Source of the DNA: an uncultured delta proteobacterium
Lineage (GTDB): Bacteria > Desulfobacterota > Binatia > UBA9968
Assembly (NCBI GenBank): GCA_963727625.1
Contig: CAVSHR010000004.1
Location: 1,184,001-1,248,000 of the forward strand
Direction: 5' to 3'
Length of the DNA stretch: 64,000 nucleotides
Part shown: positions 3,740 to 23,230 of the stretch, in pieces
Position numbering within the stretch: position 1 is the stretch's first letter
Layout: each line of letters opens with the position of its first letter
Program-made: the position numbers and the translations under genes
Notes under the pieces: generated by a model
Databases searched by the model: none
What the model was told of the DNA's origin: nothing
What the model saw: the letters and a program-made list of their open reading frames with translations, nothing else

Positions 3740-3934
3740 TTAGAAAGAGTGTCGTACCCTGCGCATCGCGCGCTTCTTCGCGGCGATCGCCTTCTTTTTC
3801 TTCTTCACGCTGGGTTTTTCGTAATGCTCACGTTTGCGCAGTTCGGCAAGAATACCAGCCTTTTCGCAGAGCTTTTTGAAGCGGCGGATTGCACTCTCGA
3901 TGGATTCATTATCTCGAACTCTGACTCCCGTCAT
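3740..3934 (-). CDS. rpsU: 30S ribosomal protein S21
   Basis: [42 protein letters not shown]. Confidence 0.98.
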
Positions 3935-3982
3935 AAAATCAATCACCCCCGATCCAACCAGATCGTTTTACATCCGCTGATG

Positions 3983-8648: not shown

Positions 8649-9503
8649 TTACTCGCGCCGCTGCGATAACGCGCCGCTCGTGTGACCGCCGGTCGATCGA
8701 TCATCTGCCCTTTCGAGGGAGAAACTGCCATGATCCCAGAGCCTGCCGAAGATCAGGCAGGCAAGAGCGATGCTCAAGGGCCCGACCAACGCCGCCAGCC
8801 AATATCGGTTGAGCAGGCAGAAACCGAAGGGCAAGGCAAAATTCACCGAATAAACCCACGCCGCGAAACCCACGCTGCCGCGCGGCGCGGGCGCGAGTCG
8901 ATGCAACAACAGCAGGAGAACCAAGCCGGTCACTCCCCAGCCGAGTAAGTTCATCCACGGCATGCCATAATAGGCACCCTTGTCACCCCAGACCCAGTAG
9001 CTGGTAACCCGGCTCATCGCCGGATCGAGCAGCAGATCCCAGGCAACCAGCAACACGGTGCCCAGAAACACCGCGGCCAGACCGCGGGAAACCCGCCGCG
9101 CCAAGATCCAACAAGCCCAACTCATGGTAAACCAGCTGAGCGGGATCAACAGCGGCACGCGATCAAACCATTTGATGCCGAGCAGGGAAGTGTACGAATA
9201 GGCGCCGAAGGGAATGCCATAGGTCGTGCCCATGAGCTCGCTCGAAAGGCTGACAACGTAAACCACCAGAAAAGCCCAGAGTGCCTTTTGCTTGTCTCTG
9301 AGGAGCGCTTCACTGGTTGCCGCCAATCCGCCGAACAGCATATTGCCGACGGCAAAACCATGAAAGGCCCAGGCGAAAAACCGTGCTTGCGGATCGACCT
9401 GAATCAATAAATCCGGGCGCGAGGTAAATACGCCGTAGCCCAGCAAGCTGGCGATCACGATGGCTGCCTGGATCGCGAGAAACAACCAAGGCACGAAATT
9501 CAT
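8649..9503 (-). CDS. cruF: CruF-like carotenoid 1',2'-hydratase (DUF422 membrane protein)
   Basis: ELMGTTYGIPFGAYSY, VPLLIPLSWF, AWDLLLDPAM, YYGMPWMNLLGW; last gene of the crt operon. Confidence 0.82.
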   Translation of the reverse strand: MNFVPWLFLAIQAAIVIASLLGYGVFTSRPDLLIQVDPQARFFAWAFHGFAVGNMLFGGLAATSEALLRDKQKALWAFLVVYVVSLSSELMGTTYGIPFGAYSYTSLLGIKWFDRVPLLIPLSWFTMSWACWILARRVSRGLAAVFLGTVLLVAWDLLLDPAMSRVTSYWVWGDKGAYYGMPWMNLLGWGVTGLVLLLLLHRLAPAPRGSVGFAAWVYSVNFALPFGFCLLNRYWLAALVGPLSIALACLIFGRLWDHGSFSLERADDRSTGGHTSGALSQRRE

Positions 9504-9515
9504 GAATCTTCCTCC

Positions 9516-10472
9516 CTAACCGTTTATGTTGGAAGCCTTCCAGATCGCGCGCAACGGCGCGGGCGACCAGGGTTGGACAAGCCGCGCCGGCAGCGAGCGA
9601 ATCAAACCGAGAATGCCGACGAGCACGACGCGAAGCTTGCGCGCGCCGGTCACATAGGTGCGCTCGTCCCAAGCATGGGCGCCCTTGCGCAGCAGCAAGG
9701 CGCCGATCTCGGAGTAGACGTTGCGCGCTGCCGCCACCGCGCAGGCGGAGCGAAACGAAAGATGCCACAATCCCGCATCACCGGATCGGTAGTAGCGCTC
9801 GGCTTCGCGCAACAGGCGCTGGGTTAAGAGAGCCAATTTTTCTCGATTGGCGGGAGCGGCGATTTCATCCGGCTTGATCTCGGCCTCGTCGAGCCAGCTG
9901 AGCGGCAGATAAATCCGCCCCAGAGCGGCATCTTCGATGATGTCGCGGGCGATGTTGGTGAGCTGCATGGCAATACCGAGATCCGCTGCATGCTTGAGCG
10001 CGCGCTCGTCGCGGAGTCCCATCACATGGGCCATCATCAAGCCGACCGTACCGGCGACACGGTAGCAATAGAGCAACAGCTCTTTGAGCGTCGTGTAATG
10101 AGTGCCGCGCACATCCATCGCCATCCCTTCGATGAGCTCCAAAGCATAGTGGGAAGGAATACCGTAGCGATGGACTATATATTGTAGGGCGACGAAAACC
10201 GGCTGGCGCTGCGGCGTGAAGGAAAAAGCCGCGGCGGTGTTTTCTTTAAGCGCTTTGAGCCGCGTGGCAAGCTCAGCTGGGTCGGTGCCGTTGCCGACTT
10301 GATCCACCTGGTCATCGCAGTAGCGGCACCAGCCGTACAAAAAAAACGCCGCGTCACGGGTGTCCGGATCGAACAACCGCGCCGCCAACGAGAAGCTCTT
10401 CGAGCCCTTTTGAATCATCCAGCGGCATTCATCCAATGCCCCTCTGACCTGCTCCGGCATCGCTTCACGCAT
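9516..10472 (-). CDS. crtB: Phytoene synthase
   Basis: GSKSFSLAARLF, WCRYCDDQVD, YCYRVAGTVGLM, MQLTNIARDIIEDA..GRIYLP. Confidence 0.96.
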   Translation of the reverse strand: MREAMPEQVRGALDECRWMIQKGSKSFSLAARLFDPDTRDAAFFLYGWCRYCDDQVDQVGNGTDPAELATRLKALKENTAAAFSFTPQRQPVFVALQYIVHRYGIPSHYALELIEGMAMDVRGTHYTTLKELLLYCYRVAGTVGLMMAHVMGLRDERALKHAADLGIAMQLTNIARDIIEDAALGRIYLPLSWLDEAEIKPDEIAAPANREKLALLTQRLLREAERYYRSGDAGLWHLSFRSACAVAAARNVYSEIGALLLRKGAHAWDERTYVTGARKLRVVLVGILGLIRSLPARLVQPWSPAPLRAIWKASNING

Positions 10473-11997
10473 AGGACAACCTCGCCGCGCCCGCGTTCTC
10501 CCGAGCCAGCGCCGCCTTGTAATCTTCGGTGATCACTCCGGCCGTCGCCTTAGCCGAGTTCACCACGCCCGGGATGCCGGCGCCGGGGTGCGTGCCCGCG
10601 CCGACGAAGTAAAGCCCGTTAATGTCTTTGTCACGGTTATGCACCCGGAAGTAAGCGCTCTGGGTCAAACGCGGCTCGAGCGAAAACGCCGAACCCAAAT
10701 GGGAATTGAGCTCGACTTTGAAATCCTCGGGAGTAAAGATTCTTTGCGTAACGATTTGGCCGCGCAGCTCCGGCATGTAGTTCCGCTCGAGATAGTCGAG
10801 AATGCGCTCGGCATAATCCGGCCCGGCGGTTTTCCAGTCGATATCGAGCTTGCCCAGGTGCGGCACCGGCGAAAGCACGTAGAATGCTTCGCAGCCGGGC
10901 GGCGCCAAGGACGGATCCGATCGGGTCGGCGCGTGCAGATAGAGTGAAAAATCGTCCGACAATCGGCCGCGGGCAAAGATATCCTTTAACAGCTCGCGGT
11001 AGCGCGGTCCGAAGATGATGTTGTGATGCAGCAGGTTCGGATAGCGCCGCCGCGTGCCGAAGTAGATCAGGAACAGCGACATGCTGTAGGCCGAGCGGGA
11101 CAGGCGCTTGCGCATGCGCTCGGCGCGCCGCTCGCGGCGTAACAGGGCGTCGTAGGTGTGGAACACGTCGGCGTTGCTCGCGACCAGGTCGAACTCCTCT
11201 CTCTGGCCGCTCTTGCTGATCACCGCCTGCACCTGACCGGCCTTGGTAACGATCTCGCCGATCTCCGCGTTCAGACGCAACTCGCCGCCTAGGTCGGTGA
11301 AGAGCTTGACCAGCGCTTGGACCAAAGCCGCAGTCCCGCCCTTCGGAAAAAACACACCCCACTTGCGCTCGAGGCAGTGAATCAGAGTGTAAATCGAGGT
11401 CGTGGTAAACGGATTGCCGCCCACCAGCAGGGAGTGAAAGCTGAAGAGCTGGCGCAAATGCGGGTCGCGAATATGCTTGGCGACCATGCTGTAGACGGAG
11501 CGATAGGCCTCCAACCGAACTAACTGCGGCGCCACCGCGACCATGCTCGCCCAGCTCAGAAACGGCACATGCGCGAGTTTTTCATAGCCCTCGCGGAAAA
11601 CCTCTTCCGAGTATTTGAGAAACTTTTTGTAGCCGGCCAGATCCTCCGGCGATTTTTTTGCGATCTGCGCTTCGAGCAGCGCCGCGTCATCGGAATAGTC
11701 GAATCGGTAGCCATCCTGCCAAAATAAACGATAGAAAGGATCCACCGCCAGCAACTCGACGTAATCGTCCATCGACTTGCCCGCCAAGGTGAACAGCTCT
11801 CGCAGACATTGCGGCGCGGTGATCACCGTCGGCCCGGCGTCGAAGCTAAAGCCGTTGTCGCGGTAGACATAGGCCCTGCCGCCGGCCAGATCGCGTTTCT
11901 CGAATATGACCGTGCGGAAGCCGGCGGCCTGCAGGCGAATGGCCAACGCCAGCCCGCCGAAACCGCTGCCGATCACCGCGGCGCGCAGCTTATCCAT
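10465..11997 (-). CDS. crtI: Phytoene desaturase (CrtI type)
   Basis: VIGSGFGGLALAIRLQAAG, FDAGPTVIT, SLYLHAP, YFVGAGTHPGAGIPGV; start trimmed to MDKLRAAVIG. Confidence 0.97.
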   Translation of the reverse strand: MDKLRAAVIGSGFGGLALAIRLQAAGFRTVIFEKRDLAGGRAYVYRDNGFSFDAGPTVITAPQCLRELFTLAGKSMDDYVELLAVDPFYRLFWQDGYRFDYSDDAALLEAQIAKKSPEDLAGYKKFLKYSEEVFREGYEKLAHVPFLSWASMVAVAPQLVRLEAYRSVYSMVAKHIRDPHLRQLFSFHSLLVGGNPFTTTSIYTLIHCLERKWGVFFPKGGTAALVQALVKLFTDLGGELRLNAEIGEIVTKAGQVQAVISKSGQREEFDLVASNADVFHTYDALLRRERRAERMRKRLSRSAYSMSLFLIYFGTRRRYPNLLHHNIIFGPRYRELLKDIFARGRLSDDFSLYLHAPTRSDPSLAPPGCEAFYVLSPVPHLGKLDIDWKTAGPDYAERILDYLERNYMPELRGQIVTQRIFTPEDFKVELNSHLGSAFSLEPRLTQSAYFRVHNRDKDINGLYFVGAGTHPGAGIPGVVNSAKATAGVITEDYKAALARENAGAARLSYA

Positions 11998-13117
11998 AGG
12001 CCAGCGCAATCTCTTCGCCCAAAGCTCGCAGTTCCTCGAAAGCGCGCTTGGACCAGGATACTCCGGTTTCATCGAGGCGAGCTTCGAGCAATTCGAACGC
12101 ATGGTCGAGACAGCTCTGAGCGCAATTGCGCGTCACAGGAACCAATTTATTCGCCCCGATCCACGATTCCAAATGCGCTGCGTCGGGCAGCTCGCTGACC
12201 GCGGCGAGGAATTCTTCGTAGTCACGCGCCGTGCTCTGATTTGCGGCGCAGGCCCAGACCCAGGAGGGCCGCGACAGGATCAAATCCTCATAGCGCTTGG
12301 AGGGCTCGCATTTACCGATCGTGTTGCCGAGATCATCGAACATTTGCAACGCGACGCCCAGATCCCGGCCGAAATCGTCGACGATTGAGATCAGCTTTTC
12401 CGAGCCGCCGGCGAGCACCGCGCCAAGCATGGCGGCAAACCCCATCAGCGCGCCGGTTTTAAGCCGCATCGAGGCGGTGCAAACTTCGGCCACCTCGCCA
12501 CGCGGCAGCCTGTGGACCTGAGCGCCCAAGTCGATCGCTTGGCCGAAATGGGCGCGCAACAAGGTGCGGTGGCAACGATCATAAATGAGCAGCATTTGAT
12601 CCTTTGCAACGCCCATCTCTTTAAGCAGTTCAAAGGGCCAGAAATAGAGCCAATTGCCGGCATTGAGAGCGATCGGCAGGCCATGGCGGACATGGAGCGC
12701 CGGACGCCCCCGGCGCATCGGACTGCCGTCTTCGATATCGTCGACGATGAGCGAGCCGGCATGGATGAATTCCACGGCTTCAGCGGCAATTCGACAGCGT
12801 TTCGCCGCGACTATGGAATGGGCCGCCTCGGAGTTAATCAAGCGGTAGCTGAAGCCCAGCAGTTGCCCGCGAATACGCTTGCCGCGGTTTGCGGTCAAGT
12901 CAACGATCGGATCCAACAACGCGCGACTCAACACACCGGACACCGCGCCCACATCATCGAGTCCCAGCAATTCAGCCAGCTGCGCGCCGTCGGGGAGGGT
13001 CCCGTCGGCAATTTCTTTGAGGCTGCCCGGGCGATCGTATTTCTCGGGACGCTCCTCGAAGCGCCGTCTAAACGGCGCCGGCGCCGACCGGCTCAGATCC
13101 AGAATTGAATTCTTCAT
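11990..13117 (-). CDS. crtE: Polyprenyl synthetase, probable GGPP synthase (CrtE-like)
   Basis: GKRIRG, IHAGSLIVDDIEDGSPMRRGRPALH, GQAID, KTGALM; within the crt operon. Confidence 0.8.
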   Translation of the reverse strand: MKNSILDLSRSAPAPFRRRFEERPEKYDRPGSLKEIADGTLPDGAQLAELLGLDDVGAVSGVLSRALLDPIVDLTANRGKRIRGQLLGFSYRLINSEAAHSIVAAKRCRIAAEAVEFIHAGSLIVDDIEDGSPMRRGRPALHVRHGLPIALNAGNWLYFWPFELLKEMGVAKDQMLLIYDRCHRTLLRAHFGQAIDLGAQVHRLPRGEVAEVCTASMRLKTGALMGFAAMLGAVLAGGSEKLISIVDDFGRDLGVALQMFDDLGNTIGKCEPSKRYEDLILSRPSWVWACAANQSTARDYEEFLAAVSELPDAAHLESWIGANKLVPVTRNCAQSCLDHAFELLEARLDETGVSWSKRAFEELRALGEEIALAYG

Positions 13118-14088
13118 TCATTCCTCCCCAAAATTTGAAACGACTCGCTATCACCGGCCAAGAGATTTTCCGGAGTCACGCTCAAGGCGTTAGAAAGCCG
13201 GATGACGATATCCATGGATACGTTTTGCTTACCGCCTTCGACCGCGACGATACAGACTCGCGTCACGCGCGTCACTTTGGCTAGCTGCTCTTGGGTCCAA
13301 GCCTTCTTTAATCGCAAATCCCTCACCTGCCGCCCCAGCGCCAGCAGGTATTCTTTCAAGATCACCTTGGGACGGTTGGCACGCAAATTTTTAAGCGCCA
13401 AATCGATGCCGTCGTCGAGATCGCGCGCGATCTGGCAACGTCCGGTCAAAACGTTTCGCAAGGCATCGTTCGCAAGCGCCTGTCCGCCCAGGATGATGCG
13501 CGGCGCAGGCGCAAGGGCCACTGATTGTCCGATAAAATCGCGCGCGTGCTCGACGCCTTCGGGCAACGTCGCGGACAGCGCGACCAACTGCGGCCGGCGC
13601 TTCTGGGCTAGTTCGACGAGGGCTTCAGCGGGCACATCGGGACCGAGAAAGTCGGCGGTCCAGCCGCGGCTCCGACAGAGATCGGCAAACATCCGCGCGC
13701 CGATGTAGTGACGCTCGCCCTGAACGCAGGCAACCAGCACGCGATAGGACGAGCGCCGTTCGCGCCAAGCGAACATGGAGCTCAAACGATCCAGATGGCT
13801 CAGAACAATCTGAGTCGCCAAATGCTCCTCAGCGACACCGATATCGCCGCGACACCACAGGTTGCCAAGAGTAACCAGCGACGGCGCGATCACCTGACTG
13901 TAGATTTTGTCAAGCGAAAATCGCTGGGACAAAACATCATCGAGAACCCGGTGCGACGCTTCAGCGTCCCCCGCCATGAGCGCTGCGCTATATGCGCCGC
14001 GGCTTTGATCGAAGTGGTTACTATGATCGGCTTGGTTTTTTATCGGACGGTAATACGTCATCTTAATAAATCTTTGTATAGCGACCAT
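13114..14088 (-). CDS. Cobalamin-binding (CarH-type) photosensor domain fused to C-terminal XRE/Cro HTH; probable light-responsive regulator
   Basis: W-CRGDIGVAE-EH (Wx9EH), GERHYIG (ExHxxG), VALSAT, IILGGQA; C-terminal LGRQVRDLRLKKAWTQEQLAK...VEGGKQNVSMDIVIRLSNAL. Start at 14088 follows GGGGA; a later start is possible. Confidence 0.88.
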   Translation of the reverse strand: MVAIQRFIKMTYYRPIKNQADHSNHFDQSRGAYSAALMAGDAEASHRVLDDVLSQRFSLDKIYSQVIAPSLVTLGNLWCRGDIGVAEEHLATQIVLSHLDRLSSMFAWRERRSSYRVLVACVQGERHYIGARMFADLCRSRGWTADFLGPDVPAEALVELAQKRRPQLVALSATLPEGVEHARDFIGQSVALAPAPRIILGGQALANDALRNVLTGRCQIARDLDDGIDLALKNLRANRPKVILKEYLLALGRQVRDLRLKKAWTQEQLAKVTRVTRVCIVAVEGGKQNVSMDIVIRLSNALSVTPENLLAGDSESFQILGRNE

Positions 14089-14105
14089 TTCCCCCGATCG
14101 CTCCG

Positions 14106-15009
14106 TTACAGCCGCAGGGATCGCAACGCCGCCGCAATCGTAGGGTATTTGAAGCCATAGCCTAACTTCAACGCCGCTTCGGGCATTGCTTTCTGACCGG
14201 CTAATAACATATCGGCCATCTCGCCGGTGAGCAGCGTCAAGGCGGAAGGCGGCACGGACACCCACGACGGCCGGTTCAAAACAGCGCCCAGGGCCTTGGA
14301 AAATTCCGCCATGGTCACCGGATTGGGCGCGGTGCCGTTGAAAGCGCCCCGCGCGTTATCGTTTTCCATAAGAAACATCAGCAAGCCGATCTCGTCTTCA
14401 ATATGAATCCACGGCATCCACTGGTGGCCGAGCCCAGCGGCCCGCCCATAAACATCTTGAACGGCGGCACCATCTTTTTGAGCGCGCCCTGGCCGCGGTC
14501 GAGCACGATGCCGGTGCGCAACAGCACGACGCGAACCCCATGGGCTTCGGCCTTTTTCGCTTCGGATTCCCAGTCGATACAGAGCTGCGCCAAAAAATCA
14601 CTCCCGGGCGCGCTGTTCTCGGTAATCGCCTCGTCCCCATGCGGGCCGTAATAGCCCACCGCCGAGGCGCTCAGCAAAAGTTCGGCTTGTTTTTCGCCTT
14701 GGCCATGGCGTTGACCAGGGCGCGCGTCGATTCGATCCGGCTCGAGCGGATTAGCGTTTTCTGCGCCGCGCTCCAGCGCTTGCCGCCGATCGGTTCGCCG
14801 GCCAAATTGATCACACCGTCGGCGCTGTCAATCGCCTTTTCCCGTTCGCCGGTTGCACCGGGAGTCCACGCGAACCACTCCTTCTTGGTAACACCTAGTT
14901 CTGCCGGCGGTCGCCGGCTAAGCAGCGCCAGCGTGTGGAGTTGATTCCATAGCCGGTCAGCCAAAATCGAGCCGACAAACCCCGTAGCACCCGCGATAAC
15001 GACCTTCAT
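14106..15009 (-). pseudogene. TIGR01777 family NAD-dependent epimerase, split by two frameshifts
   Basis: Three consecutive ORF fragments (GATGFVG..INLAGEPI / SASAVGYYG..LRTGIVL..GGPLGS / MPWIH..FNGTAPNPV..GQK) join with +1 nt at about 14681 and about 14428. Confidence 0.85.
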
Positions 15010-15052
15010 CGAGCTTGCCTGAAAATTTCCTTGTGCTCCTGAAATGACATTC

Positions 15053-15076
15053 TGAAGTCAAATATATTTGACTTCA
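15053..15076. promoter_or_regulatory. Perfect 24-bp palindrome containing back-to-back -35-like hexamers (divergent promoter/operator)
   Basis: TGAAGTCAAATATATTTGACTTCA equals its reverse complement; TTGACT on both strands; lies in the 100-bp divergent intergenic region. Confidence 0.7.
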
Positions 15077-15109
15077 ATAGCACTAATGTCTTAATTAGTA
15101 AACATAGCG

Positions 15110-16069
15110 ATGGAACAAAATTTACTCCAACGCCCGCGCCTGGGCATCAGCGCTTGTTTGCTCGGGCAAACCGTGCGCTACGACGGGGGCCACAAGCATG
15201 ACGCGTTTTTGACCGATACCTTCGGCCGCTTCGTCGATTGGGTGCCGGTTTGTCCGGAGCTGGAAGTAGGCATGGGCGTGCCGCGCGAAAGCGTGCGGCT
15301 GATCGGTTCGTTGAATCAGCCGCGCATGATCGCCGAGCGTTCCGGCAAGGATTGGACCGACGCGATGACTGCCTTCGCCGCCAAACGGAGCGACTCTCTC
15401 GCCGCCCTCGATCTCTCCGGCTACGTGTTTAAAAAGGATTCGCCGAGCTGCGGCATGGAACGGGTCCGGGTGTACGAAGCAAAAACCCAGCCGACGCGCC
15501 GCGGCCGCGGTTTGTTTGCCGCCGCGTTGATGAAAAAGCTGCCGCTCCTTCCCGTCGAAGAAGAGGGGCGCTTGAACGATCCGGCGCTGCGCGAAAACTT
15601 CATCGAGCGGGTCTTCGCTTACCACCGTTGGCGCGCCGCAGAAGTCAAGAAGTCACGGGGCAGCCTGGTCGCCTTTCACACCCGGCATAAATATTTATTG
15701 CTGGCGCACAGCGAGCGTCACTATCGCAATCTCGGCCGAGTGGTCGCCGGCGCCAAGGAAAAGCCGCTGCGCGAAGTTTATGATGAATACGGCCTCGGCT
15801 TCATGGAAGGGCTGGCCGTCCAAGCCAGCGCCAAAAAACACGCCAACGTGCTCGACCACATGATGGGGTATTTTTCCAAGCAGCTCGACCCCGCCGAGCG
15901 CCAGGAGTTGGTCGAATTGATCGCCGACTACCGGCGCGAATTAGTTCCGCTCATCGTGCCGGTGACCCTGGTCCGCCACTACGTCAAGAAATACGCTGTG
16001 GCGTACCTCAACGACCAGGTTTATTTGGCGCCGAGCCCGAAGGAGCTGATGCTGCGCAATCACGTTTAG
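15110..16069 (+). CDS. DUF523-DUF1722 fusion (TudS/RudS-like thiouridine desulfidase, YbgA family)
   Basis: GISACLLGQTVRYDGGHK, PVCPELEVGMGVPRE, KKDSPSCG (three Fe-S cysteines), EEEGRLND, FHTRHKYLLLAHS, ELMLRNHV end. Confidence 0.92.
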   Translation: MEQNLLQRPRLGISACLLGQTVRYDGGHKHDAFLTDTFGRFVDWVPVCPELEVGMGVPRESVRLIGSLNQPRMIAERSGKDWTDAMTAFAAKRSDSLAALDLSGYVFKKDSPSCGMERVRVYEAKTQPTRRGRGLFAAALMKKLPLLPVEEEGRLNDPALRENFIERVFAYHRWRAAEVKKSRGSLVAFHTRHKYLLLAHSERHYRNLGRVVAGAKEKPLREVYDEYGLGFMEGLAVQASAKKHANVLDHMMGYFSKQLDPAERQELVELIADYRRELVPLIVPVTLVRHYVKKYAVAYLNDQVYLAPSPKELMLRNHV

Positions 16070-16091
16070 CGTCGCTCTGAGCACTGGAACG

Positions 16092-16580
16092 ATGAAGACT
16101 TTTAATTTTGCCAGCGAAACTTGGTTACCTGCGCCGCGCCATCGAGTGTTTGAGTTTTTCGCCGACCCGGGCAACTTAGAACGGCTGACGCCGCCCTGGC
16201 TACACTTTGAGATCATCACGCCGCCGGACACCGCCATCACGCAAGGCAGCTTGCTCGACTACCGCCTGCGCCTGCGCGGCATCCCGCTGCGCTGGCAGAG
16301 TGAAATTTCCCTCTGGGAGCCGCCGCGCCGTTTCGTCGACCGGCAGACCAAAGGTCCCTACTCGCTCTGGGTGCACGAACACACCTTCGTCGACCATGAC
16401 GGCGGGACCATGGTCGGCGATCGCGTCGAATACGCCGTGCCCGGCGGCCGGCTCGTGCAAACATTTATTGTCGCTCCCGACCTCGAACGGATTTTTCAAT
16501 TCCGCCGCCGAGTCCTCGAAGAGATCTTCGCCGCCCGGGGGGCGCCTGCCCGCAGCATCGACCGGCGTTTAGTCCAGTGA
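16092..16580 (+). CDS. SRPBCC (START-like) family protein
   Basis: VFEFFADPGNLERLTPP, FVDRQTKGPYSLWVHEHTF, IFQFRR. Confidence 0.88.
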   Translation: MKTFNFASETWLPAPRHRVFEFFADPGNLERLTPPWLHFEIITPPDTAITQGSLLDYRLRLRGIPLRWQSEISLWEPPRRFVDRQTKGPYSLWVHEHTFVDHDGGTMVGDRVEYAVPGGRLVQTFIVAPDLERIFQFRRRVLEEIFAARGAPARSIDRRLVQ

Positions 16581-17966
16581 GCGGCCCTTTTCCAGCGCCG
16601 CGATGCGCTCGATGTAAGCCTTCGAATTGAACTTGCGCGAGGTGCTCTCGTAGGACATGTAGCGGATCTTGCCGTACACCGGCCGCTCCGGTCCCCAGGC
16701 GCGGTCATGCTTGCCGACGATCGCCCAGGCGATGCCGGCGTAGCCGTTGGGATCGCGGCCGTCGAGCTCGTAGCGGTCATTGAGCCAAACCGCGATCCGG
16801 TAGGCCGCCTGCGGCGACTCGGTCCATTCGAGAATTTTTTTCGCCCAGTACATGCGCAGGTAGCCGTGCATCCAGCCCGTCAGCACCATTTGCTTTTGTG
16901 CCGCGTTCCACAGCGGATCGTGGGTTTCAGCGTTTTCCAACTGCCGCTCCGTGTAAACACAGCGCCGACGATCCTGGGCGTGTTTGCGGTGGGTGAGTTC
17001 GGCCCAGGGCTCGCAGGCTTCGAAGTTCTCATAGTCGCGGTTGAAGCGCACGAAATTAATCGCCAGCTCCCGGCGCACGATCAGTTCCTCTAAGTAGGCT
17101 TTGCGGTCTTCCGCCGGCGCGCCAGCCTGTTGCACGGCAAGCGCCACGGTGTGCGCACCGATCTGGCCGAAGTGGAGATAAGCTGACAATTGGCTCGTGC
17201 CATCGATATCGGGTTGGTTGCGCAGCGTCGCATAGCCTTTGAGCCGGTGGCGCAGAAATCTTTCGAGGCAACACCGCGCTTCAGCGCTGCCGCCCGAGAA
17301 GTGTCGCGACGGCACGACCGAGCAGTCGATGGGAAATTCATCGAGCAGCGCCAAGTCCGAGGATAATGAAGCGACCTGCGCGGGCATGCGCCAGGCGAAC
17401 TTCGCCGCCGGGTTTCCTACCGGTTGCAAAAATTGCGGCAAGAGAGCTTGAATTTTCGGTCGGATCGTTCGCGCCGCGTAATGCTCTCTGGCAAGCAGCT
17501 TGGACGGCACGATCACGTCGGTGTCCACCGTCCAGAGCGGCAAATTGATTTGCTGCGCGATCTTGGCCTTGGTCAGCTCCGCCTGCTTCATCGGATTCTC
17601 GTCGCCGATCACCAAACAAGGCCGCACCTCGGAACAAAATCGCAAAAGCCCGTGTCGCGGATAACGGCGGAGAACCCATCCCACACCTCTTTTTTTTAGC
17701 TCCGCAGCAATGTCTCTCAGCCCTTCAACGAGAAATTGATAGTGCCGGAGATTCCCGTGATGAGAACGAGGAACGAGTTGAAAGAACACCACAACCGGCT
17801 TGCCCAGACGGTTGCCGGCTTCGACCGCGGCCGTGAGCGCGGCGTTATCCGCCGCTCTTTGAGCGCGCTGCATCCAGTAAACCACGCATCGCCCGTCGGG
17901 GTCCGGCGTGCCGGACCGCCGTACGGTCAGCCGTGGATCATCGCGCAAACAATCCAGGGCGGTCAT
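16569..17966 (-). CDS. phrB: Class II CPD DNA photolyase
   Basis: VVYWMQRAQRAADN, SQLSAYLHFGQI, THDPLWNAAQ, MHGYLRMYWAKKILEW, DGRDPNGY, ERPVYGKIRYMS; ATG overlaps the upstream stop (ATGA). Confidence 0.95.
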   Translation of the reverse strand: MTALDCLRDDPRLTVRRSGTPDPDGRCVVYWMQRAQRAADNAALTAAVEAGNRLGKPVVVFFQLVPRSHHGNLRHYQFLVEGLRDIAAELKKRGVGWVLRRYPRHGLLRFCSEVRPCLVIGDENPMKQAELTKAKIAQQINLPLWTVDTDVIVPSKLLAREHYAARTIRPKIQALLPQFLQPVGNPAAKFAWRMPAQVASLSSDLALLDEFPIDCSVVPSRHFSGGSAEARCCLERFLRHRLKGYATLRNQPDIDGTSQLSAYLHFGQIGAHTVALAVQQAGAPAEDRKAYLEELIVRRELAINFVRFNRDYENFEACEPWAELTHRKHAQDRRRCVYTERQLENAETHDPLWNAAQKQMVLTGWMHGYLRMYWAKKILEWTESPQAAYRIAVWLNDRYELDGRDPNGYAGIAWAIVGKHDRAWGPERPVYGKIRYMSYESTSRKFNSKAYIERIAALEKGRSLD

Positions 17967-19414: not shown

Positions 19415-19591
19415 GGGTACGCTAATCGCTCGGTTCCGACTCTCTTTGAAAGAGGCTTCGCGCCGCTCCGCCAGGTCATTTATATAGCCAAAACGAGGCT
19501 AAACCTAATCTCGTGCAGATCTGCGCGCTTGCCTCGCCGAGAGTTTCCTGAAAGAAAATCTAAAACTGGTAAGATTGGGAGTCATCGCATC

Positions 19592-20419
19592 ATGCCCCAA
19601 GCTATTCTGCCAAAGCCTTTCGAAGGCGACGAACACCGATCTTTTCTTTGGCAAGGGAGCGATGGCGCGGCGCTGCTGGTTCACGGCTTTCCCGGGACTC
19701 CGGCAGAGATGCGGCCGCTCGGAACCGTTCTCAAGGACGCCGGCTGGACCGTGCATGGCTTGATGCTCCCCGGACTGGGCGCGGACATTGGGAGCTTGGA
19801 CCAATGCACCGCGCGGGATTGGTCGGACGCGGTAAAACAAGCCGTGCAACTGTTGAAGCCGCGCCATTCGCCGATTCTGTTGGTCGGCTATTCCATGGGA
19901 GCTGCCTTGGCCTTAAACGCGGCCCTCGAACAGCGGCCCAGCGGACTGGTTCTGCTCGCGCCCTTTTGGAGTTTCGGCGAGGGCTGGCCGAGTCGGTTGT
20001 GGCCGGTGGTCAAGCTGCTCATGCGCCGGGTGAAACCATTGAAACGCGCCGATTTCACCGCGCCGGAGGTTCGCCACGGGATCGAGCGTATGTTTAAGAA
20101 CATCGATCTGGAAAATCCGCAAATCCGCCACGCCCTGCGCCAACTCACGGTCTCGTTACGCCCGATCGAGCAGATCCGCCAGCTGGGACAGAGGGCATTT
20201 GCCCAGGCATCGAAGATCGATGTTCCGACCTTGGTCATGCAGGGCAACCGGGACAAGGTCGTTCCGCCGATCCGCACCAAGCGTCTGATAAACGCTTTTG
20301 TCAACCGGGTCGAATACCATGAACTGGAGGGGGGCCATGACCTGGTTGACCCTGAGAGCGGGGCTTGGAATCCGGTCAAGGAATCCTTACTGCGGTTTGC
20401 TGCATCGCTGCGAACGTAG
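19592..20419 (+). CDS. Alpha/beta hydrolase (carboxylesterase/lipase-like)
   Basis: LVHGFPGTPAEM, GYSMG nucleophile motif, QGNRDKVV, GGH. Confidence 0.88.
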   Translation: MPQAILPKPFEGDEHRSFLWQGSDGAALLVHGFPGTPAEMRPLGTVLKDAGWTVHGLMLPGLGADIGSLDQCTARDWSDAVKQAVQLLKPRHSPILLVGYSMGAALALNAALEQRPSGLVLLAPFWSFGEGWPSRLWPVVKLLMRRVKPLKRADFTAPEVRHGIERMFKNIDLENPQIRHALRQLTVSLRPIEQIRQLGQRAFAQASKIDVPTLVMQGNRDKVVPPIRTKRLINAFVNRVEYHELEGGHDLVDPESGAWNPVKESLLRFAASLRT

Positions 20420-20517
20420 GCCGTCGGAAAGCCGCGCTCATTCCGCTGCAATAGTGTAACCGGCAGAAACCTGTTAAAGAAAACAAGCTAGAGACGAATT
20501 CCTCTTGGTCGACTCTT

Positions 20518-21321
20518 ATGCAAAATCGCGCTGCTGGCCTCGTCGAAGTCTATCACTCTCAGCCGGTCAATATTCGCTCGCTCTTGCTCGCGGCGCTGGC
20601 GCTCTATTGCGGCTTGTATGCGAGGGTCACCGCTGCCCAGGAAGAAGCGCCGCTCTCGCCCGGCGCTTATAAATTGGAAATGATCATGGCCTCGACCACG
20701 CGGGTGCCTTTTTTTGGCAGCTCGAAATCCGCCTCCAAGTCCGTATCCCTGGTGGAGATCCACCGCGACGGCAACAGTCTTAGTCAAAGCCACAAGGTCT
20801 GCGACTTTCGCGTCCTTGAAGATTCCAAGCTGATCAAGATGATTTTTCCGGAGAAATTTGTCGCCGCTCTAGCCAATCACAGCTATCCCATTCAACTTGA
20901 AAAAGGCGCCCAAGGATGGCATTACCGCGCCGATCTCGGCATCGAACGCATCGGTTATCGAAATAGCGGCGCGGAAGACAAGCTGCCAGCCAAAGTCGAC
21001 GATCCGGCGGTTTTCGATTGGGACGGCGACGGCCATCCCGGCGCCACGCTGAAAATCTCCGTGCCCTTGTTGCCGGATGGCGAACTCTATGTCGTCCAGC
21101 GAGGCCAATCGATCCTCACCGGCCGACTGGTTCAGCCGGGCAGGATCGAAGGTCATATCGACGTACGCACCTTCGACCAGCGGGTTATCGACGCCTGGCC
21201 CAGTTTCCTCGCCACATCGCCGGAAATTGTGCCGGATCCAAAGGAAAGCCGCTTTATCCTGACCGCGATTCCCGCCGGCACGAGCTGCGCCACGCTGCGC
21301 GCCGCGGCGCAAAAACCGTGA
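20518..21321 (+). CDS. Hypothetical secreted protein with DxDxDG motif
   Basis: Signal-peptide-like LLLAALALYCGLYARVTAA; VFDWDGDGHPGATL; beta-rich; start uncertain. Confidence 0.65.
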   Translation: MQNRAAGLVEVYHSQPVNIRSLLLAALALYCGLYARVTAAQEEAPLSPGAYKLEMIMASTTRVPFFGSSKSASKSVSLVEIHRDGNSLSQSHKVCDFRVLEDSKLIKMIFPEKFVAALANHSYPIQLEKGAQGWHYRADLGIERIGYRNSGAEDKLPAKVDDPAVFDWDGDGHPGATLKISVPLLPDGELYVVQRGQSILTGRLVQPGRIEGHIDVRTFDQRVIDAWPSFLATSPEIVPDPKESRFILTAIPAGTSCATLRAAAQKP

Positions 21322-21355
21322 TTCAACTGGTCGGCGTCCGACTGAGGTTAAAAAA

Positions 21356-22471
21356 TTGTTCGGCGCGAAAAGACACAGAAGATTAAGGCTCATTCAAGCC
21401 GGCGCGTCGCCGAGCGCGGACCGCATCAGCATTATCTTGCCGGTGCTAAACGAAGCGCCGCGCATCGACGCCTGTCTCGACGCGCTGATTGCGCAGAGTG
21501 AAGAAGTCGACGAGATTCTGGTCGTCGACGGCGGTTCGACGGACGGCACTCGGTCGATCGTCGCGCGCTACCGGGACAGAGACGGCCGGGTGCGTTTACT
21601 CGACGCCAGCCCCATCGACGTGCATTGGACCGGCAAGGTTTGGGGGCTCAATTTCGGCCTGCAGCGCTCCGCGCCGAGCTGCCAATGGATTCTCTGCATC
21701 GATGCGGACGTGCGCGTTGCGCCGCTGCTCTCGCGCTCGCTCCTGGCCCATGCCAATCGAATGGGCGTATCGACGTTCTCCATCGCAGCCCAACAAAAGC
21801 TCTCGGGCAAGCTCGAAGCTTTAATCCACCCGCCGATGCTGACCACGCTGATTTACCGCTTCGGCTCGCCCGGTAACGCTACGCGCAGCGTTCACAAGGT
21901 CAAGGCCAACGGCCAGTGCTTTTTCAGCCGGCGCGATATTTTGTTGCGCACCGAGGCTTTCAATGCCGCGCGCGCCTCGCTCTGTGAAGATATCACCATC
22001 GTGCGTCGTCTCGCCGAATGCGGCGAGTGGGTCGGCTTTTACGAGGCCGAGCCGGGTTTGATCGATGTGCGCATGTACGGTAGCTGTCGCGAGACCTGGG
22101 CCAACTGGCCGCGCTCCCTGCCCATGCGCGATCAATATTTCGGCTGGCGCGAAGCCATGGGGTTCCCGGGCATCCTGCTGGTTCAGGCGTTGCCGCTGCC
22201 GGCATTCCTGCTCGGCATTGGGTTCGGCGCGCCGCTGTGGTTTCTCCTGCTCGTCGGACTCTTGTTGGCCATTCGCATCGGCGTTTTGATCGGTGTCGCC
22301 CGCGCCTACCCGGCGCGGCCGTGGACGTTTTGGCTATCGCCGCTTTGCGATCTGCCCGTGGTTTTGCGGATCATCCAGTTCGCCCTTCGCCGCCGCCATA
22401 GCTGGCGCGGCCGCACCTATGTGCGCCAACCCGGTGGCCGGTTTGAGCCGGCGAGCAATCCCGACTCTTAG
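21356..22471 (+). CDS. Family 2 glycosyltransferase, CruG-like (carotenoid glycosyltransferase)
   Basis: IILPVLNEA, VVDGGSTDGT, WTGKVWGL, IDADV, ANGQC, CEDIT, WPRSL, C-terminal TM segments and WRGRTY; start uncertain. Confidence 0.82.
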   Translation: MFGAKRHRRLRLIQAGASPSADRISIILPVLNEAPRIDACLDALIAQSEEVDEILVVDGGSTDGTRSIVARYRDRDGRVRLLDASPIDVHWTGKVWGLNFGLQRSAPSCQWILCIDADVRVAPLLSRSLLAHANRMGVSTFSIAAQQKLSGKLEALIHPPMLTTLIYRFGSPGNATRSVHKVKANGQCFFSRRDILLRTEAFNAARASLCEDITIVRRLAECGEWVGFYEAEPGLIDVRMYGSCRETWANWPRSLPMRDQYFGWREAMGFPGILLVQALPLPAFLLGIGFGAPLWFLLLVGLLLAIRIGVLIGVARAYPARPWTFWLSPLCDLPVVLRIIQFALRRRHSWRGRTYVRQPGGRFEPASNPDS

Positions 22472-22495
22472 GCGAATTTTCTTGGGAGCGTTTCG

Positions 22496-23230
22496 GTGGC
22501 CTCGCTCACGGAATTGATCATCGATAAAGCCATGCGCGCCATCGCCGCCGCGCTCGCCGCCGGCCGTCTGAAAACGGCCGCGAACGGCGTGGAAAATATC
22601 CCGGCGCGCGGCCCGGCGCTGATCGTCGCGCGCCATTACCATCATCTGTTTGACGGACTCGCTCTGTTCGCCGCCATGCCGCGGCCGTTCCACATCGTGG
22701 TCACGGTGGACTGGGCAAAAAACCGCCGTACGAAATTTTTCATGGAAGCGATGACCCGCGCCGCGCGCTGGCCGGTGCTGCTGCGCGCCGACGCGCTGGC
22801 GCGCGGCGGTCATAACCCCGGTCGACTCTTTTCCCCGAACGACGTCACGCACTACCAACGCAAAGCGCTGCGCCAAGCCGTCGAGTTGCTCGTCCAGGGA
22901 AGGATCGTCGTGGTTTTTCCGGAGGGCTACCCCAACATCGACCCGACCTACACGCCCAAGACCGAGCCCGAAGCGTTCCTGCCTTTCAAACCGGGCTTCG
23001 TCCACATTCTAAGCGCGGCGGAGAAACGCGTGAAACAAAAAATTCCGATTATCCCCGCGGGCCTATGCTACACGCCCGGCAAGCCGTGGGTTGGACAGTT
23101 GAAGTTCGGCAAGATCAACTATCGTGCAGATTTTGCCGATTCGAAGGAAATGATCTTTTTTTTAGAGGGCAAGGTAAAATCACTTTCCAGATCCATAGAA
23201 TCCCGTGGACTTGAGCAGAGCGGTGAATAG
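22496..23230 (+). CDS. PlsC-like (lysophospholipid/carotenoid glycoside) acyltransferase
   Basis: GVENIPARGPALIVARHYHHLFDG (HxxxxD), VFPEGYP, FKPGF, PIIPAGL. Confidence 0.82.
   Translation: MASLTELIIDKAMRAIAAALAAGRLKTAANGVENIPARGPALIVARHYHHLFDGLALFAAMPRPFHIVVTVDWAKNRRTKFFMEAMTRAARWPVLLRADALARGGHNPGRLFSPNDVTHYQRKALRQAVELLVQGRIVVVFPEGYPNIDPTYTPKTEPEAFLPFKPGFVHILSAAEKRVKQKIPIIPAGLCYTPGKPWVGQLKFGKINYRADFADSKEMIFFLEGKVKSLSRSIESRGLEQSGE

Follow-up and report, generated by a model that had tools for sequence, protein, structure and literature searches.

The 64,000-nt stretch of DNA analysed here (the window) contains a 100-bp gap (15010-15109) between a leftward TIGR01777-like/regulator/crtE-I-B operon and a rightward RudS-like/SRPBCC operon, and in this gap sits a palindrome that an initial annotation had put forward as the operator of the B12-XRE regulator encoded in the leftward operon. 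Is this palindrome the binding site of that regulator, and what would its occupancy do to the two operons? The relevant features are listed by position.

8649 to 13117, minus strand: crtE-, crtI- and crtB-like genes and a Caroten_synth-family gene, 3' of the regulator (Pfam polyprenyl_synt, Amino_oxidase, SQS_PSY and Caroten_synth)
13114 to 14064, minus strand: regulator, 316 aa, with a CarH-type B12-binding module and, C-terminal to it, an XRE helix-turn-helix (Pfam)
14106 to 15009, minus strand: TIGR01777-family oxidoreductase gene, first of the leftward operon, split over three frames
15053 to 15076, unstranded: full 24-bp perfect palindrome, with the outer 4 bp on each side specific to this genome
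15057 to 15072, unstranded: O1 core GTCAAATATATTTGAC, a 16-bp TATA-centred palindrome (GTCAA-N-TATA-N-TTGAC), candidate operator
15061 to 15066, minus strand: TATATT, one putative -10 of the leftward operon; its -35 partner was not found
15068 to 15073, plus strand: TTGACT, -35 hexamer of the rightward (RudS-like) promoter and right arm of O1; TTGAC is invariant in the alignment of related promoters (A1)
15085 to 15105, plus strand: conserved block AATGTCTTAATTAGTAAACAT (TGT ... ACA), with TGT and ACA invariant in A1
15110 to 16069, plus strand: RudS-like gene, first of the rightward operon (Pfam 2-thiour_desulf, a TudS-type desulfidase domain, and DUF1722)
16092 to 16580, plus strand: SRPBCC-fold protein, second gene of the rightward operon (Pfam Polyketide_cyc)

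The divergent genes flanking the gap are present as first described, the sole exception being the TIGR01777-like gene, which is split over three reading frames (ORFs 14671-15009, 14378-14677 and 14106-14417). Compared with two relatives it carries two 1-nt deletions (alignment A3, columns 333 and 584); an intact orthologue scores 352.6 bits against TIGR01777 (cut-off 207). DNA contigs that cover the stretch agree with its sequence, and a look for RNA runs covering 13100-16600 found none. The names crtE, crtI and crtB are our reading of the Pfam families polyprenyl_synt, Amino_oxidase and SQS_PSY. The neighbours in the cluster are carotenoid, RudS and photolyase genes, and Pfam analysis of the cluster genes found no other regulator gene among them. 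According to the text of PMC11417400 available to us, RudS is a tRNA s4U-removing (de-modification) enzyme, and RudS genes occur in light-responsive operons under B12- or LitR-type regulators.

The regulator matches the Pfam families B12-binding_2 (2.7e-12), B12-binding (9.9e-17), HTH_31 (2.1e-9) and HTH_3 (7.6e-8). No MerR domain was found in it, the only helix-turn-helix matches in Pfam being HTH_31, HTH_3 and HTH_19, at residues 309-372 of the long ORF. By sequence it is related to the CarH chains 5c8a and 5c8d (E about 1e-17), and Foldseek matches its B12 module to B12 domains of CarH, LitR and photocobilin, with 5c8d, 8c31 and 3whp among the hits, at a target TM of about 0.7-0.8. Against the NCBIfam CarH model (NF052513) it scores 88.3 bits, with a cut-off of 400, the match being limited to residues 25-202. 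The light-responsive signature given in the available portion of PMC11796333 consists of GxxW, EH, GxxH and GxxxP (W131, E141, H142 and H177 of TtCarH). All four elements are found in alignment A2 (15 sequences) as G76/W79, E89/H90, G125/H128 and G150/P154; these residues are invariant, except that G125 is nearly so and H90 is Lys in 2 of the 15, and in an alignment with CarH chain 5c8a the W...EH and GERH of the regulator fall on identical residues.

The helix-turn-helix is nearly invariant across A2, where overall identity is 48-77%, and one shared operator is therefore expected. Homologues of the regulator number at least 458. The closest solved relative of the helix-turn-helix by sequence is the controller protein C.AhdI (1y7y, E 8e-6). 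Two copies of the XRE domain (residues 236-325) modelled together give a symmetric homodimer scoring 0.47, versus 0.01 for the best of 3 controls, a pass that likeness to solved XRE dimers may explain. Among proteins solved as one-chain pairs 20 of 30 reach the mark for this score, and among those solved as single chains 1 of 23. The modelled interface is symmetric (residues 242-252, 290-301 and 306-312), at least 85% of the contacts are common to the three runs, and the partner pLDDT is 75-76. In the AlphaFold2 monomer the helix-turn-helix is poor (pLDDT <50 at residues 275-290), too poor for a comparison of the fold of the DNA-binding domain. Full-text literature searches returned no paper on a B12-XRE regulator or its operator; the supplementary network of PMC11796333 may list the family.

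The perfect 24-bp palindrome is confirmed: TGAAGTCAAATATATTTGACTTCA at 15053-15076 has two arms of 12 nt that are 100% complementary and have no spacer between them. A second copy of the 24-mer is absent from the whole genome (6,619,502 bases) at up to 5 mismatches, and the genome holds a total of 18 zero-spacer perfect palindromes with arms of at least 12, this one included, most of the others being G+C-rich. From 100 shuffles of the window, 0.01 matches to the 18-nt core would be expected at up to 3 mismatches. AGTCAA-N6-TTGACT occurs once in the genome (0.21 expected from base composition), while GTCAA-N6-TTGAC occurs 4 times, with 4.4 expected, so that without the TATA centre the arms are no commoner than chance predicts. 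The outer TGAA/TTCA arms of the 24-mer are unconserved in A1, and the A preceding GT and the T following GAC are merely common among the loci. Two further symmetries had been noted around the palindrome. The pair GACATT (15046-15051)/AATGTC (15085-15090) is present, but its axis, at 15068, is 3.5 bp off the palindrome axis at 15064.5; ACTAAT-N6-ATTAGT (15082-15099) is also present. Both are unconserved in relatives, being limited to this genome, and are unsupported as parts of the element. The impression that a CarH-style direct-repeat array is missing was correct for 14900-15250, where an inverted repeat alone was found.

The core recurs with the regulator. A motif GT-N4-(T/A)A(T/A)(T/A)-N-TTGAC is present in the divergent gap of 28 of 29 assessable distinct regulator loci, across which regulator identity is 42-76%; a script found 27 of these motifs, and one (L033) was added by eye. 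Both arms read GTCAA/TTGAC in 11 of the 29, and in 18 the left arm is degenerate (GTAAA, GTTAA, GTACG and others). Information content was calculated for 26 regulator-adjacent promoters (24 distinct), anchored on TTGAC alone. G(-11) and T(-10) carry 2.0 bits each and A(-8) 1.3 bits, the TATA at -5 to -2 carries 2.0, 2.0, 1.8 and 1.8 bits, and positions -20 to -14 carry 0.1-0.3 bits only. The conserved G, T and A mirror the C, A and T of TTGAC. As judged from these alignments, the conserved unit is the 16-bp core alone, with unconstrained flanking bases. In three metagenome contigs (L107, L130 and L145) an SRPBCC gene replaces RudS as the rightward gene and the site is kept next to the TIGR01777-like gene; L107 and L130 include the regulator, and the L145 stretch ends short of the regulator position.

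At ten promoters of RudS homologues without an adjacent regulator, the left arm and the TATA centre are absent. The site matrix scores at most 11.7 bits at these ten loci versus at least 19.5 bits at the twelve scored regulator loci of the family. In one control, L070, TIGR01777 and RudS genes form a divergent pair and the site is lacking; the genome is 99% complete, and the regulator was not found in it. Second RudS copies in regulator-bearing genomes (L049, L051 and L055) have TTGAC and lack the left arm and TATA. No such site was found at two distant regulator homologues, L037 (36% identity, Acidobacteriota) and L040 (30%). The former is of no use as a covariation test, because its recognition helix and gene context differ and the site is absent.

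Within its own genome the site stands alone. A matrix built from 17 other loci gives it 30.4 bits, more than any other place in the genome. The two runners-up, at 21.6 and 21.4 bits, were rejected; they are next to unrelated genes, one near a LysR/Rieske pair and the other where an MscS-like gene begins. Searches that used the 24-mer (allowing 6 mismatches), exact patterns and the 17-locus matrix revealed no other sites that would make up a wider regulon in this genome, and neither inspection nor the matrix scan found a similar site in the photolyase/DUF2867 promoter gap (19415-19528).

The view of the palindrome as a candidate B12-XRE operator thus stands, with the core in 28 of the 29 regulator loci, absent from the 10 regulator-less RudS promoters and present as one site per genome. 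Because the core recurs wherever the B12-XRE regulator is encoded next door, it is probably the binding site of this regulator. The comparison draws on metagenome-assembled genomes of one bacterial family, in which regulator and site are passed on jointly as one cassette, and co-occurrence is for this reason no proof of contact. On balance we lean towards the 16-bp core (15057-15072) being the operator of the regulator encoded 1 kb leftward, acting by the mechanism proposed below.

How much of this conservation could be due to promoter elements? The initial annotation had read a -35 hexamer on each strand. A functional -35 is unsupported for the left arm, which on the minus strand is not TTGAC in 18 of the 29 loci; the right arm alone is the conserved -35. 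Two back-to-back -35 boxes were rejected as an account of the symmetry, because the left arm has no suitably spaced -10 on the minus strand: 16-18 bp downstream the sequence is GAGCAC here, and nothing -10-like was found in the six other symmetric loci inspected. The consensus scan gave no convincing canonical -10 for either promoter. Its sole promoter-like call in the region takes TATATT as the -10, and it did not call the best rightward candidates, CTTAAT/TTAATT after TGT, which are weak. The rightward promoter probably has an extended -10 and its start site within the block at 15085-15105. The RudS-like ATG lies about 6-8 nt past the inferred start, no Shine-Dalgarno was visible on inspection of the sequence, and the message is apparently almost leaderless. 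The same block may represent a second, weaker site, O2 (GT-N12-AC, 15088-15103, 31 bp from O1). As an established operator O2 was rejected: its invariant TGT and ACA are explicable as extended -10 and start, a AATGTCTTAATTAGTAAACAT-type block also occurs in three RudS promoters away from the regulator (L049, L051 and L055), and the distance from TTGAC to TGT varies by 1-2 bp among loci.

Promoter architecture could in principle account for the whole site with no dedicated protein, TTGAC serving as the rightward -35 and the TATA centre as a -10 reading TATAnT on both strands. TTGAC does persist at RudS promoters without an adjacent regulator (L049, L051, L055, L057, L058 and L065), and TATAnT, a good -10 that the one promoter-like call of the scan also uses, is found on the plus strand at all loci and also on the minus strand at roughly two-thirds of them. 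Yet the invariant G(-11) and T(-10) and the partly conserved A(-8) have no -10 or -35 role, the central hexamer has no -35 partner on either strand in relatives, and TATA and left arm are missing from L070 and from RudS promoters elsewhere in regulator-bearing genomes. We consider this reading unlikely. With the -35 explaining the right arm and the TATA centre a -10 on both strands, the operator-only signal is reduced to the three mirrored bases G, T and A. A hairpin, either an RNA stem-loop or terminator in the leader or a DNA cruciform, would account for the palindrome in a different way. The minus-strand RNA folds at -11 kcal/mol (z -2.8), and a terminator scan flagged 15077-15052 on that strand. 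The stem is, however, lost in relatives, which fold at -3.2 and -3.9 kcal/mol (z 0.17 and 0.26); variation in the left arm is not matched by compensatory change on the right, where the arm is invariant, and G-C pairs make up only 3 of the 11 counted in the stem. An RNA hairpin is disfavoured by this lack of conservation, and we give hairpins of either kind hardly any weight.

Could the site instead serve another transcription factor, encoded elsewhere in the genome? The 18-bp palindrome AGTCAANTATANTTGACT matched at least 119 metagenome stretches, of which 80 were retrieved; among the matches listed, 5 of the 80 are in a TIGR01777/regulator/RudS context and 75 in unrelated contexts. Being so frequent elsewhere, the palindrome sequence alone is not diagnostic. 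Eight other intergenic matches, on contigs of at least 50% G+C, are flanked by 17 ORFs that include TetR, MarR, SocA/Panacea, TIR, cytochrome c and RRXRR types; no B12 or XRE genes were found among these 17. At two of the eight matches the ORFs belong to the TetR and MarR families, so such a sequence may serve other regulators too. Against a different factor at the present locus, the site cassette and the regulator travel together in the 90 genomes of the family (27 with both RudS and the regulator, 9 with RudS only, 3 with the regulator only and 51 with neither). The site is absent where the regulator is absent, one site per genome is expected of a locally acting, self-regulating protein, and no other regulator gene was found in the cluster. 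A different factor is thus quite improbable. It is similarly doubtful, in our estimate, that the B12-XRE regulator binds the site and activates, as controller proteins do from a promoter-distal operator. The geometry would allow it, since the centre of O1 (15064.5) is about 40 bp upstream of the inferred start at about 15103-15106, a class II activator position, and controller proteins recruit sigma to the -35 according to the accessible text of PMC3351150. On the other hand, a consensus -35 TTGACT is untypical of activator-dependent promoters, the hexamer is inside the half-site, so that the protein and sigma region 4 would compete for one groove, and the characterised B12 light regulators, CarH and LitR, are dark-state repressors according to published abstracts and PMC11417400.

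The mechanism that we favour for the B12-XRE regulator at this site is repression. A two-fold symmetric pair of XRE domains would read the half-sites GTnA and TnAC flanking a deformable TATA centre. Because the right half-site is also the -35 hexamer of the rightward RudS-like/SRPBCC promoter, bound protein would exclude RNA polymerase there. The leftward TIGR01777/regulator/crt operon, including the regulator itself, would be blocked too, as every plausible leftward start is at or just to the right of the site. By analogy with CarH, the B12-bound oligomer would bind in the dark and light would release it. Co-repression of both operons by one site, as originally suggested, is geometrically plausible. 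We infer binding itself, repression rather than activation, the dark/light polarity and the control of the leftward operon. A bolder and more speculative version, which is possible but doubtful, has a dark-state dimer of dimers clamping two places 31 bp or three helical turns apart, O1 on the -35 and O2 on the -10 and start. A CarH-type sensor would then drive a C-terminal, controller-protein-like XRE domain as an as yet uncharacterised class of B12 photoreceptor repressor. The compact bidirectional promoter would be shut, and a regulon confined to one locus, serving carotenoid synthesis and tRNA s4U removal, would stay off until light breaks the oligomer.

The operator of CarH (TtCarH) consists of tandem 11-bp direct repeats. 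The regulator described here resembles CarH and the class I LitR proteins (Thermus, Myxococcus, Bacillus and Streptomyces) in its two Pfam B12 domains, its fold and the GxxW/EH/GxxH/GxxxP signature, in the position of its gene inside a carotenoid operon that is presumably under its control, and in a light-related neighbourhood (photolyase, RudS and crt genes). It differs in having a C-terminal XRE helix-turn-helix, whereas CarH has an N-terminal MerR winged helix, and in a candidate operator that is one TATA-centred palindrome. In agreement with a trait of the XRE family, this candidate operator is a conserved palindromic core in the promoter gap of the regulator's own operon.

Restriction-modification controller (C) proteins of the XRE family, such as C.AhdI and C.Esp1396I, offer another parallel. 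In the account that the available text of PMC3351150 gives, binding bends the TATA centre of their operators, the bases recognised are GTC/GAC, and TG/CA lies on the flanks; dimers bind cooperatively to neighbouring sites, two within 35 bp, and one such site covers a -35. The present site likewise has a TATA centre, GTC...GAC ends and a -35 within it, and 31 bp away is a TGT...ACA block that may be a second site. Unlike the C-protein operators, it has the triplets in reversed order and wider apart (GTCAA-N6-TTGAC versus the C-box GACT-N3-AGTC), it has no restriction-modification context, and the helix-turn-helix is fused to a sensor domain. SignatureFinder, as far as the available text of PMC11796333 goes, describes light-responsive cobalamin-binding domains fused to a helix-turn-helix on the N- or C-terminal side; the B12-XRE regulator fits this description, and that text characterises no C-terminal helix-turn-helix member and gives no operator. 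The Pseudomonas LitR/RudS/photolyase operons covered in the accessible part of PMC11417400 likewise place RudS in a light-responsive photolyase cluster with a B12-related regulator nearby, but there the regulator is of the MerR type instead of XRE, and the gene order differs.

To our knowledge, B12-based light sensing is understood almost entirely through CarH and LitR, in which a MerR domain reads direct repeats. Sequence mining has turned up fusions of the B12 sensor with other output domains, and these are largely uncharacterised experimentally. The locus provides a short candidate DNA target for one such fusion: the half-site pattern is GTnA and TnAC with TATA between them, the regulon comprises one site, and there are natural negative controls. 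The site is a plausible operator for a new variant of the B12 light switch. If binding and release by light are true, one sensor module would be able to work with DNA-binding domains and operator geometries that are unrelated to each other, and the optogenetic toolbox would gain a palindrome-reading repressor released by green light. The same switch would explain how uncultured soil Binatia turn on carotenoids and the tRNA de-modification enzyme RudS.

The gap between the divergent TIGR01777-family and RudS-like genes contains, as the initial annotation had it, a perfect 24-bp palindrome, TGAAGTCAAATATATTTGACTTCA, at 15053-15076, with 12-nt arms and no spacer. The gap is 100 bp long and has a G+C content of 36-38%, against about 57% for the genome. 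The surrounding features are as follows.

13114-14064, leftward: regulator of 316 aa (B12-binding_2, B12-binding and C-terminal XRE helix-turn-helix), second in its operon; crtE-, crtI- and crtB-like genes and a Caroten_synth-family gene follow, also leftward
14106-15009, leftward: TIGR01777-family oxidoreductase gene, first in the leftward operon
15066 to 15061, minus strand: candidate leftward -10 TATATT, the central hexamer, without a -35
15068-15073, plus strand: predicted rightward -35 TTGACT, followed after 16-17 bp by TGT-CTTAAT/TTAATT
15079 to 15074, minus strand: candidate leftward -10 TATTGA, with TTTACT (15102 to 15097) 17 bp upstream
15102-15104, plus strand: ACA, ahead of the RudS-like ATG at 15110
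15110-16069, rightward: RudS-like gene (TudS-type desulfidase and DUF1722), in an operon with an SRPBCC protein gene, also rightward
Further right: convergent photolyase gene and an NmrA/DUF2867 gene
19529-23230, right of that pair: genes for an alpha/beta hydrolase, a protein without known family, a family-2 glycosyltransferase and an acyltransferase

The genes at 19529-23230 could serve carotenoid modification (a glycoside ester); their promoter gap, 19415-19528, contains no regulator-type site. The TIGR01777-like gene has two single-base deletions (near 14680 and 14429) relative to two relatives, both within short homopolymer runs, and therefore reads in three frames. Across 14629-14941 a contig from another sequencing run aligns without gaps, which shows that the first deletion is not confined to this assembly. 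Either the regulator's operon begins with a genuine pseudogene, or this gene contains a read error that is shared.

Shuffling the window gives an expectation of 0.01 matches to the 18-nt core of the palindrome at up to three mismatches, and the 6.6-Mb genome contains no second copy of the 24-mer at up to five mismatches. AGTCAA-N6-TTGACT occurs once in the genome (0.21 expected) and GTCAA-N6-TTGAC four times (4.4 expected); the arms alone are therefore at chance level. Zero-spacer perfect palindromes with arms of at least 12 nt number 18 in the genome including TGAAGTCAAATATATTTGACTTCA, most of the others being G+C-rich. A family of 28-bp perfect palindromes, GTAGGGGCG...CGCCCCTAC, found in at least six places (e.g., C2:49050-49077, C2:52066-52093 and C12:124859-124886), looks like REP-type repeat elements. 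The 18-bp core palindrome of TGAAGTCAAATATATTTGACTTCA is frequent elsewhere, with unrelated contexts in 75 of the 80 metagenome matches listed; two such copies adjoin TetR- and MarR-family ORFs. One unrelated metagenome contig of 48% G+C (L142, 1601-1683) has four exact copies in tandem, spaced 21-22 bp apart, and L106 has a single identical 18-mer at the same offset, the two records being similarly numbered (Ga0138266 vs Ga0138268).

The gene order RudS <-> TIGR01777-regulator-crtE-crtI is kept in relatives, which allowed the site to be compared across loci. When 14 same-genus gaps excised by gene coordinates were aligned, the invariant columns between the start codons were GT, the TA of TATA, TTGAC, T, TGT, T and ACA, with the other two TATA bases nearly invariant. 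Among 31 distinct regulator loci, two were excluded because their sequence ends within the TIGR01777 gene. In 27 of the 29 assessable loci a script found GT-N4-(T/A)A(T/A)(T/A)-N-TTGAC in the divergent gap; L033, overlooked owing to a wrong start estimate, also has the site (GTCAAATATAGTTGAC), and the decayed locus L039 has a one-mismatch form. Both arms read GTCAA/TTGAC in 11 of the 29. To guard against circularity, TTGAC was the sole anchor for 26 rows (24 distinct); G(-11) and T(-10) then carried 2.0 bits each, A(-8) 1.3 bits and TATA (-5 to -2) 2.0, 2.0, 1.8 and 1.8 bits, against 0.1-0.3 bits at positions -20 to -14. The conserved bases of the left arm mirror C, A and T of TTGAC exactly. 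No conservation in relatives is seen for the four outermost bases on either side of the 24-mer, and the site is absent from more distant homologues. The repeats GACATT/AATGTC and ACTAAT-N6-ATTAGT noted beside the palindrome are present but not conserved in relatives, and so find no support as parts of the element; the axis of the former is offset by 3.5 bp from that of the palindrome.

A census of 90 genomes of the family gave 27 with RudS and regulator, 9 with RudS only, 3 with regulator only and 51 with neither; contig ends account for one of the nine RudS-only genomes, and two of the three regulator-only genomes are at contig ends. A site matrix scored no higher than 11.7 bits at 10 RudS-homologue loci with upstream sequence and without an adjacent regulator and at least 19.5 bits at the 12 scored regulator loci of the family, four of which, outside the matrix training, gave 22.2, 28.1, 19.5 and 32.6 bits. 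Among the 10 loci lacking an adjacent regulator, three are additional RudS copies from genomes that encode the regulator elsewhere; they retain GTTGAC and, downstream, the block ATGTTATnAACnGTCAACAC, with GGCGGAAA or similar in place of the left arm and TATA. The site is also absent at L070, where TIGR01777 and RudS genes diverge in a genome that is 99% complete and in which no regulator was found. Conversely, on three metagenome contigs (L107, L130 and L145) SRPBCC replaces RudS as the rightward gene and the TIGR01777-like gene still has the site next to it; L107 and L130 include the regulator, and the L145 stretch stops short of its position. The left arm and TATA therefore track the regulator's operon, not the RudS or TIGR01777 gene, both of which also occur without the regulator.

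Several further arrangements were seen at these loci. One genus has two RudS paralogues (L049, L051 and L055 vs L074-L076; genomes G104, G105 and G101): the copy transcribed divergently to the regulator operon carries a perfect GTCAA...TTGAC site, and the copy elsewhere has a GTTGAC-N25-GTCAAC inverted repeat around the core promoter, without TATA or left arm. On one contig of G004 (L006/L032, L057) an internal deletion leaves the RudS next to the regulator operon with matches at residues 10-93 and 291-319 alone, and a full-length RudS, accompanied by SRPBCC and photolyase, is found about 6 kb off (L057) with a different promoter. In a genome without the B12-XRE regulator (G060; L068, 3183-3710), the gene for another B12-domain protein, with 30% identity in the sensor part, lies about 700 bp away from RudS.

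The symmetry might instead reflect two back-to-back -35 boxes, and the initial annotation placed one on each strand. The minus-strand TTGACT, however, is not followed at 17 bp by a -10, either here (GAGCAC) or in six other symmetric loci inspected, and the left arm is other than TTGAC on the minus strand in 18 of the 29 loci; this reading therefore fails. TTGAC and the downstream block are themselves predicted rightward promoter elements, although the rightward -10 is weak and a consensus scan made no call. The RudS-like message seems, from its sequence, to be almost leaderless: there is no Shine-Dalgarno sequence at 15085-15112 or at the same place in relatives, whose TIGR01777 genes have one, and a conserved AACAT stands 0-8 nt ahead of the varying ATG/GTG starts. 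Either candidate leftward -10 would place the site within about -12 to +16 relative to the leftward start, where a bound protein would hinder both directions. The right arm and the TATA centre each have a promoter explanation of their own; moreover, all relatives compared are metagenome-assembled genomes of one family, in which the regulator and site are inherited as a unit. The best-supported explanation of the 16-bp core (15057-15072) is nevertheless that it is an operator, which we hold with slightly more belief than doubt. The proposal of a B12-XRE operator is retained for this core and not for the unconserved outer arm bases.

A second 16-mer of the form GT-N12-AC, with an A/T centre and conserved as TGT...ACA, lies at 15088-15103, 31 bp from the core. 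By analogy with controller-protein operators it could seat a second dimer. An extended -10 and start site would account for its conserved bases equally well, and the block is also kept at RudS promoters that lie apart from the regulator and varies by 1-2 bp in its distance to TTGAC.

The sensor half of the regulator matches solved CarH chains (E ~1e-17), and its W...EH and GERH segments fall on the equivalent CarH residues in the alignment. It has all four motifs (GxxW, EH, GxxH and GxxxP) given as the light-responsive signature in a passage of PMC11796333; in 15 homologues (48-77% identity) the signature residues are invariant except G125 (nearly so) and H90 (Lys in two). The AlphaFold2 model (mean pLDDT 74; sensor high, part of the helix-turn-helix <50) best matches the B12 domains of photocobilin, CtMerR, CarH and LitR. 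Membership of the CarH family was rejected: the protein has no MerR domain and scores 88 bits against an NCBIfam cut-off of 400. Its helix-turn-helix, nearly invariant across the 15 homologues, is most like that of the controller protein C.AhdI (E 8e-6). Two copies of the XRE domain (residues 236-325) were modelled as a symmetric dimer with a score of 0.47 (0.01 for the best of three controls), a pass that may reflect likeness to solved XRE dimers; among proteins of solved structure, 20 of 30 one-chain pairs and 1 of 23 single chains reached the dimer-score mark. Independent runs share at least 85% of contacts (pLDDT 75-76). Databases hold at least 458 homologues at E <=1e-5, the best 120 all with the same architecture and some from records titled Candidatus Binatia. 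An Acidobacteriota contig (L037) encodes a 36% identical B12-XRE homologue with a different recognition helix, at a distance from carotenoid genes; its upstream DNA (3860-3960) contains, in place of the palindrome, direct repeats of two kinds: TTGAC-N7-TTGAC, and a pair of TTCGACA copies 32 bp apart.

Functionally, CarH/LitR is the closest system, with the same sensor, the same kind of target genes and a regulator encoded in its own target operon; it differs in the DNA-binding domain and in the geometry of the candidate operator. For DNA reading, the closest analogue is the controller-protein family, in whose operators, as a section of PMC3351150 describes, the TATA centre is compressed and bent, GTC/GAC and TG/CA are contacted, two dimers sit within 35 bp and one operator lies over a -35. 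Database mining described in part of PMC11796333 found light-type cobalamin domains fused to a helix-turn-helix at either end; our full-text literature searches found no description of a B12-XRE regulator or of its operator. The regulator and its site would represent a variant of the B12 light switch, for which both binding and a response to light are predicted.
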